Source of the DNA: Escherichia coli
Lineage (GTDB): Bacteria > Pseudomonadota > Gammaproteobacteria > Enterobacterales > Enterobacteriaceae
NCBI RefSeq assembly: GCF_024223415.1
Contig: NZ_CP100500.1
Length of the DNA stretch: 64,000 bases
Direction: 5' to 3' (one strand)
The position numbers and the translations under genes are program-made. The notes below the pieces were generated by a model. It searched no databases, was not told where the DNA came from, and saw nothing but the letters and a program-made list of their open reading frames with translations. How positions within the stretch are numbered: position 1 is the first letter of the stretch; the number at the start of each line of letters is the position of its first letter. Below, piece after piece: positions 34,832 through 35,172 of this stretch.

Positions 34832-35172
34832 TAGCTGTATTATTTTATTTTCTTAACGAGAGGAATACAAAATGATACGGCTATTTCATCCACCAAGAAA
34901 AAATTATTTTCTTATCTTACTCCTCACATCCCCCCTTACACATTAAATATACTTAATTTACATTTTAGTTTTTTTAATTCATTCATGAAATAGCACTTCA
35001 TGCAAATAGATTAGGCATTTTTTGTTTAAACGACCTAAAATAACAACAATTCAATACGCCACATAAATATATTCACACCCGTGATAATTCACCCCTATTA
35101 CATCCTCCAAAAACTTTGAGTAATATCCGCTCGCAATATTAATTTCATATAATTTTTGTAAGGATGCATGTA
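34832..35172 (+). promoter_or_regulatory. very AT-rich upstream region of the fimbrial operon (putative promoter / nucleoid-protein silencing region)
   Basis: About 340 bp of markedly low GC with A/T tracts immediately upstream of the major fimbrial subunit gene; typical of chaperone-usher operon control regions. Confidence 0.5.

Follow-up and report, generated by a model that had tools for sequence, protein, structure and literature searches.

Introduction

Between folK and the yad fimbrial operon of Escherichia coli lies a short, unannotated open reading frame (ORF) of 24 codons that is preceded by a Shine-Dalgarno (SD)-like motif. Does this mini-ORF encode a small hydrophobic protein or a regulatory leader peptide, or did it arise by chance? 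All three readings had been offered in an earlier note on the same DNA. We addressed the question within the window, i.e. the whole stretch of 64,000 nucleotides that was analysed, and by comparison with other E. coli genomes.

The mini-ORF and its setting

The frame runs on the + strand from the ATG at 34872 to the TAA at 34944–34946 and specifies the peptide MIRLFHPPRKNYFLILLLTSPLTH. Its ATG lies 40 nt beyond the folK stop (TAA, 34829–34831), and 226 nt separate its own stop from the ATG of the yadN-type gene. The order of genes is gluQ-pcnB-folK followed by a chaperone-usher fimbrial operon, which corresponds to the yad locus (in K-12 yadN-yadV-htrE-...). The spacer between folK and the fimbrial gene (34832–35172, 341 bp) is AT-rich, with a GC content of 29%. 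The SD-like motif, the ATG, the stop and the peptide all agree in position and sequence with what had been described before, as does the context, an unannotated site just beyond folK where the AT-rich fimbrial control region begins.

Positions 34700–35300 of the window are 100% identical to E. coli O78 strain 3, for which PGAP annotates folK, the fimbrial protein WP_000709670.1, a chaperone and an usher. No PGAP feature is found between folK and the fimbrial gene in any RefSeq record compared, O78 strain 3 included, and in the MG1655 reference record the interval from folK to yadN is likewise without a small gene. The features discussed below are collected in Table 1. At the downstream border of the spacer, the longest ORF of the fimbrial subunit begins with the ATG at 35164 (MHVMKK...), and the RefSeq start is the ATG at 35173 (MKK...).

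Table 1. Features in and around the folK-yadN spacer (window coordinates).
Feature	Position	Strand	Remark
folK (159 aa), upstream gene	34352..34831	+	last ~13 codons in one allelic cassette with spacer and fimbrial operon
Imperfect inverted repeat / RNA hairpin	34830..34885	+ only	arms 34830–34852 and 34863–34885; 23 nt, 83% complementary
59-bp indel segment	34845..34903		SD, ATG, codons 1–11 and hairpin 3′ arm; missing in about 329/423 allele genomes
11-bp direct repeat TTATTTTCTTA, first copy	34845..34855		one edge of 59-bp indel
SD-like GAGAGGAA	34858..34865	+	6 nt 5′ of ATG, moderate strength
24-codon ORF (MIRLFHPPRKNYFLILLLTSPLTH + TAA)	34872..34946	+	judged a non-coding by-product ORF
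G-free, C-rich tract, 70 nt	34898..34967	+	rut-like composition
11-bp direct repeat TTATTTTCTTA, second copy	34904..34914		other edge of 59-bp indel
C6 homopolymer inside mini-ORF	34930..34935	+	5, 6 or 8 C by strain, frameshifting the last codons
yadN-type major fimbrial subunit gene, WP_000709670.1	35173..35769	+	first gene of the Yad chaperone-usher operon

The mini-ORF is disrupted in most strains that carry its locus

We surveyed 5426 complete E. coli genomes using blastn in its sensitive mode. The spacer allele of the window is present in about 423 of them. Most other E. coli, including K-12, possess a different yadN allele, the divergence of which starts inside the last ~13 folK codons, and neither a homologous ORF nor a comparable hairpin was found in the K-12 allele. 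The 5′ half of the mini-ORF is present in only 94 of the ~423 allele carriers. About 329 carriers match only from 34904 on; among the matches listed these are mostly O157:H7, plus O55:H7 and others. In the alignment the absence amounts to exactly 59 bp, and a single copy of TTATTTTCTTA is left in the short forms. Because O157:H7 shares derived variants at 34801, 34812 and 34928 with long-form O145:H28-type strains, the short form represents a derived deletion between the direct repeats. The 59-bp segment or hairpin was also considered as a mobile or repeated element (REP/BIME, ERIC, MITE); it is found exactly once in each of the 423 genomes and has no Rfam match, and this candidate was rejected.

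The frame is also broken among the long forms. In the O145:H28 type, comprising about 33 genomes as estimated from the identity bands of the survey, the start codon is changed from ATG to ACG and GAGAGGAA to GAGAGAAA, which weakens the SD; GAGAGAAA is also present in the D8 strain. Another 16 or so genomes are frameshifted (−1 or +2) in the C-run. Fifteen records have a 114-nt span, and the two that were fetched carry a 1-bp deletion in the run, while one record with a 117-nt span has gained two C. These frameshift variants keep an ORF of 27–28 codons in which the first 21–22 residues are unchanged. The variation in length of the C-run is ordinary slippage, without a sign of a role in phase variation. 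The complete ORF with ATG and SD is retained by roughly 45 genomes and also by Escherichia sp. E1V33. This isolate was the only hit when a conserved 24-mer was searched for in 100,044 species genomes, and its spacer is nearly identical to that of the window. Judged from this similarity, its cassette is probably a recent exchange, which provides no independent test of conservation and adds no evolutionary depth.

Point changes in the mini-ORF are almost all nonsynonymous (about seven, namely R3Q, P7S, S20P, P21S, T23I and H24Y/D, versus one synonymous change). It is not better conserved than its surroundings and, if there is a difference, varies more, with 9 variable sites in 75 positions versus 19 in 226 for the rest of the spacer. 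No purifying selection is apparent, in a comparison of little power, as divergence within the allele is small. With ~329 of 423 copies deleted, ~33 without a start codon and ~16 frameshifted, the ORF is not maintained intact, although the sequence around it is 94–100% identical among these relatives. The earlier note had named precisely this pattern as one that would speak against a function, and its protein and leader-peptide readings do not survive it.

The mini-ORF lacks coding signatures

The length of the mini-ORF is no more than chance expectation. When the 341-bp spacer was shuffled, at least one ATG ORF of at least 24 codons was present in 64% of the shuffles. A CAI-like score of 0.339 was obtained for the mini-ORF, compared to a mean of 0.70 for 34 long ORFs of the window and 0.70 for the adjacent fimbrial gene, and none of 638 24-codon chunks of the long ORFs scored as low as this. 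Codons 2, 3, 4 and 9 are the rare codons ATA, CGG, CTA and AGA, respectively. The codon usage is thus not that of the host.

The peptide itself offers little more. The longest hydrophobic run of MIRLFHPPRKNYFLILLLTSPLTH comprises 7 residues and is short of a membrane helix, which argues against the proposed small hydrophobic protein. An exact look-up of the peptide in a collection of 15 billion proteins gave no match, a weak result as gene callers seldom call ORFs below 30 aa. Scans of its 24-aa and 27-aa forms against NCBIfam and Pfam at E ≤ 10 gave no match either. Neither a homologue nor an annotated family was therefore found by protein look-up, NCBIfam, Pfam or RefSeq annotation. Together with the strain variation, the missing coding signatures favour the third reading that had been proposed, a chance ORF.

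The ribosome-binding site had been described as strong. The duplex of GAGAGGAA with the anti-SD has a moderate stability of −6.0 kcal/mol and a core of 4–5 nt; a duplex at least as stable precedes 5.1% of the window's ATGs, and 25 other ATG ORFs of 20–50 codons in the window possess an SD equal to or better than that of the mini-ORF. The spacing between SD and ATG, 6–8 nt, is optimal. Moreover, SD and AUG are both predicted to be base-paired in a hairpin. Opening the region from −14 to +3 of the start is predicted to cost 12.9 kcal/mol compared to 6.0 ± 3.1 kcal/mol for the starts of 52 long ORFs, only two of which surpass this value. By all three predictions, i.e. duplex, hairpin pairing and opening cost, the ribosome-binding site is not an accessible one, and we infer that the buried SD and AUG would allow trace translation at most.

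A predicted hairpin at the folK 3′ end contains the mini-ORF start

The start of the mini-ORF is part of an imperfect inverted repeat, the 5′ arm of which contains the folK stop codons TAA TAG and the 3′ arm the AUG and codons 1–5 of the mini-ORF. For the folK-sense RNA at 34824–34892 the predicted fold, a hairpin of about 22 bp, has a free energy of −22.7 kcal/mol with z = −6.3; none of 200 shuffles was as stable, and the hairpin ranks in the top 0.05% of GC-corrected 69-nt folds across the window. In the predicted inner stem the SD core AGGAA (34861–34865) pairs with UUCUU (34850–34854). The minus strand of the same region is unfolded (z = +0.5), because each of the three transition mismatches of the stem is a G.U pair in + strand RNA and would become C.A in − strand RNA. 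The change from ATG to ACG introduces one A.C mismatch into the stem. The hairpin is confined to the long-form allele; in O157:H7 it has been lost (z = −0.26), and for K-12 no more than a weak A/U hairpin is predicted (z = −0.6).

An intrinsic terminator was rejected as the identity of the hairpin, since its stem is A/U-rich and no U-tract is present, UCCACCAAG coming next. No terminator-like site was found on either strand of 34700–35300. A promoter scan returned one weak promoter-like site (35012–35041), fewer than in shuffles, and a scan of 34600–35400 against Rfam at E ≤ 1 yielded only a meaningless snoRNA match of 18 bits. Possible roles of the hairpin are to stabilise the 3′ end or to serve as an RNase III-type substrate; alternatively, it may be debris left by an inverted duplication. 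A perfect 10-nt inverted repeat is formed by GCTATTTCAT (34880–34889) and ATGAAATAGC (34985–34994), 95 nt apart. As the first of these overlaps the 3′ arm of the hairpin, it possibly offers an alternative pairing with the second.

A G-free tract keeps the frame open

The 3′ half of the mini-ORF is inside a tract of 70 nt devoid of G on the + strand. No other G-free run in the window exceeds 45 nt, and only 1.7% of spacer shuffles contain a run this long. The mini-ORF frame stays open because a tract without G cannot contain TAG or TGA; indeed, all three frames of the tract are open for 15–23 codons. In the slightly larger interval 34884–34961 there are 22 C and one G, and the GC skew is −0.5 to −0.76. 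In a predicted 140-nt fold the tract is unpaired and lies downstream of the hairpin. The stretch 34884–34967 thereby resembles a rut site in its skew of C over G, its weak structure and its position after a stop codon, a likeness of composition only.

Origin of the mini-ORF

We consider it highly probable, at roughly 85%, that the mini-ORF is not a gene and that it is a by-product of the hairpin and the G-free tract in the folK-yadN spacer of a minority yad allele. The inverted repeat begins at the folK stop, and the loop and descending arm of the predicted hairpin happen to spell GAGAGGAA...AUG. The G-free tract that comes directly after it keeps any entering frame open for about 15–23 codons. 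The hairpin may serve as a structure that protects the 3′ end of the pcnB-folK transcript, and the C-rich untranslated tract as a loading site for Rho. Together they would keep read-through transcription out of the yad promoter region, which is silenced by H-NS. If the mini-ORF is translated at all, this would be incidental. In O157:H7 the native promoter drives expression of the yad locus, and the locus aids colonisation (PMC11287998). O157:H7 lacks the start of the ORF and still expresses yad, and therefore the mini-ORF is not needed for yad expression. The locus has been described as H-NS-silenced and not phase-variable, and no leader peptide has been reported (PMC13245861).

It is possible, if somewhat doubtful, that the whole feature including the hairpin is neutral debris, namely the decaying remains of an old event that copied the folK 3′ end in inverted form into the spacer, by duplication or template switching. 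This view agrees with the by-product reading on the ORF and differs from it only on whether the hairpin has a function. The 3′ arm repeats the sequence at the folK stop in imperfect inverted form; the segment is single-copy in E. coli and has been cleanly lost in the successful O157:H7 lineage. K-12 does without a comparable hairpin, and covariation is not seen: the five distinct haplotypes contain no double-sided changes, variation being too small for this check. On the other hand, the G.U character on the + strand of all three stem transition mismatches is a weak hint of constraint at the RNA level. The same holds for the G>A polymorphisms at 34863 and 34879, which turn U.G into U-A and keep the pairs.

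Given the intact copies, trace or lineage-specific translation of the mini-ORF is conceivable. We give little credence to a young, lineage-restricted gene for a 24-residue micropeptide that is translated by coupling to folK. Here ribosomes that end at the folK stops (34829–34834) would melt the 5′ arm, free the SD and AUG and re-initiate 40 nt further on. The folK stops in the 5′ arm and the AUG in the 3′ arm are the textbook layout of coupled genes, the SD spacing is optimal, and about 45 genomes plus Escherichia sp. E1V33 retain the ORF intact. These points are outweighed by the many carriers in which the start is deleted (~329) or lost (~33) or the C-terminus frameshifted (~16), by substitutions that are nearly all nonsynonymous and by the extremely poor codon usage. 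In addition, a micropeptide gene of this kind would have neither homologues nor a hydrophobic segment of membrane length.

Even more improbable is a regulatory upstream ORF (uORF) or leader, in which translation rather than the peptide sets the read-through from pcnB-folK into the yad operon. Ribosomes might do so by covering the rut-like tract against Rho, or by switching the hairpin to the pairing of GCUAUUUCAU (34880–34889) with AUGAAAUAGC (34985–34994). The ORF does cross the G-free, C-rich tract, 10 nt overlapping the 3′ arm of the hairpin are perfectly complementary to a sequence 95 nt downstream, the rare codons ATA, CGG, CTA and AGA are near the start, and no intrinsic terminator intervenes between folK and yadN. 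However, the ORF is not followed by a terminator or attenuator hairpin, and no Rfam family matches. The start is dispensable in O157:H7, where yad is expressed from the native promoter and responds to signals all the same (PMC11287998), and O145:H28-type strains have lost the start codon. The ORF is also separated from yadN by 226 nt of AT-rich DNA, including the sole promoter-like match at 35012–35041, and the literature describes silencing by H-NS and no leader (PMC13245861).

We give hardly any credence to the most elaborate variant, according to which long-form strains possess a recently born, hairpin-gated uORF that is translated only as ribosomes finish folK and blocks Rho across the rut-like tract, so that read-through from pcnB-folK counter-silences the H-NS-repressed Yad operon. 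If it were true, the 59-bp deletion in O157:H7 would have uncoupled the pcnB-folK (poly(A)-polymerase/folate) and Yad operons.

Comparison with known systems

The mini-ORF resembles the spurious short ORFs of AT-rich, H-NS-bound E. coli DNA in its length, its moderate SD and its missing conservation. Its surroundings fit as well, being the control region of a fimbrial operon that is horizontally exchanged and silenced by H-NS (PMC13245861). It differs in that its open frame can be traced to a particular feature of composition, the 70-nt G-free run, and in that it starts within a statistically unusual hairpin.

Validated E. coli small proteins, as detected with Ribo-RET/Onc112, show ribosome occupancy, and many of them are conserved at least within the species. 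The mini-ORF is similar in size class (<50 aa), intergenic site and absence from automated annotation. In contrast to them, it is disrupted in most carriers of the locus, and the MG1655 record has no gene at the syntenic place.

With the attenuator leaders trpL, leuL, hisL and pheL the mini-ORF shares its shortness, its place upstream of an operon and its overlap with alternative RNA pairings. It is also rich in leucine (6 of 24 residues). Unlike in these leaders, the Leu residues are spread over four different codons with no regulatory codon run, no terminator hairpin with a U-tract is present, the first gene of the operon is 226 nt away and the ORF is not conserved. A transcription-attenuation leader was rejected on similar grounds: there is no terminator in 34700–35300, the alternative pairing of 34880–34889 with 34985–34994 leads to none, tandem regulatory codons are missing, and the downstream operon encodes fimbriae and not a biosynthetic pathway.

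In RNA phage MS2, coat and replicase are translationally coupled by a hairpin that hides the downstream ribosome-binding site. As in this type of coupling, the upstream stop and the downstream AUG are placed in opposite arms of one stem at the mini-ORF. The difference is that nothing indicates that the mini-ORF frame encodes anything, and its start codon and arm are dispensable in related strains. Finally, rut regions used by Rho are C-rich, G-poor stretches of unstructured RNA, about 70–80 nt long, after the end of translation. The tract is alike in having 22 C to 1 G over 78 nt directly after a stop codon and in being predicted to be unstructured. It deviates in that 34898–34967 is T/A-rich and not strongly C-rich (17 C in 70 nt), and a role as a rut site is suggested by composition only.

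Implications

The outcome is a negative result, in which an SD-like motif, an ATG and 24 open codons are explained by local composition and an inverted repeat. Such cases of short ORFs can be settled by strain comparison without experiments. What is left are modest but real features, a strain-variable hairpin and a rut-like tract at the 3′ end of folK. Furthermore, the clean 59-bp deletion between direct repeats, situated directly upstream of the yad control region, is a marker of the O157:H7/O55:H7 lineage. Comparisons of yad regulation between pathotypes should allow for the hairpin and tract as well as for this deletion.

Allelic exchange and further observations

The yad cassette has a breakpoint inside folK. 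The divergence of K-12-type genomes sets in at about 34792, and for Escherichia sp. E1V33 the border is near 34760, with diverged sequence upstream and near identity downstream. These borders suggest that a cassette comprising the folK 3′ end, the spacer and the fimbrial genes has been exchanged by recombination between lineages and species. The end of folK varies in other ways. In O157:H7 (TW14359, about 1498–1501) its stop is changed from TAA to TAT, making FolK one residue longer, to the next TAG. In E. coli 14EC017 (NZ_CP024134.1, 850–1523) an IS1A element sits at the very end of folK, so that the FolK C-terminus is altered (498-nt CDS) and folK is cut off from the yad region. One hit, the match of which to the folK 3′ end of the window reaches almost to the stop codon, was examined for the origin of the hairpin; it turned out to be an IS1 insertion and is uninformative on origin.

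Just 3′ of the major fimbrial subunit gene, at 35751–35819 (+), a strong hairpin GGTTTGCCAGCAGGCAAACC is followed by TTATTTT. Chaperone-usher operons usually have an intrinsic terminator or attenuator between their subunit and chaperone genes, and this hairpin resembles one. Other exceptionally stable GC-corrected 69-nt folds of the window are located at 2252–2320 (−), 24772–24840 (−), 62741–62820 and 27451–27540, the last of which has a GC content of 65% and folds on both strands.
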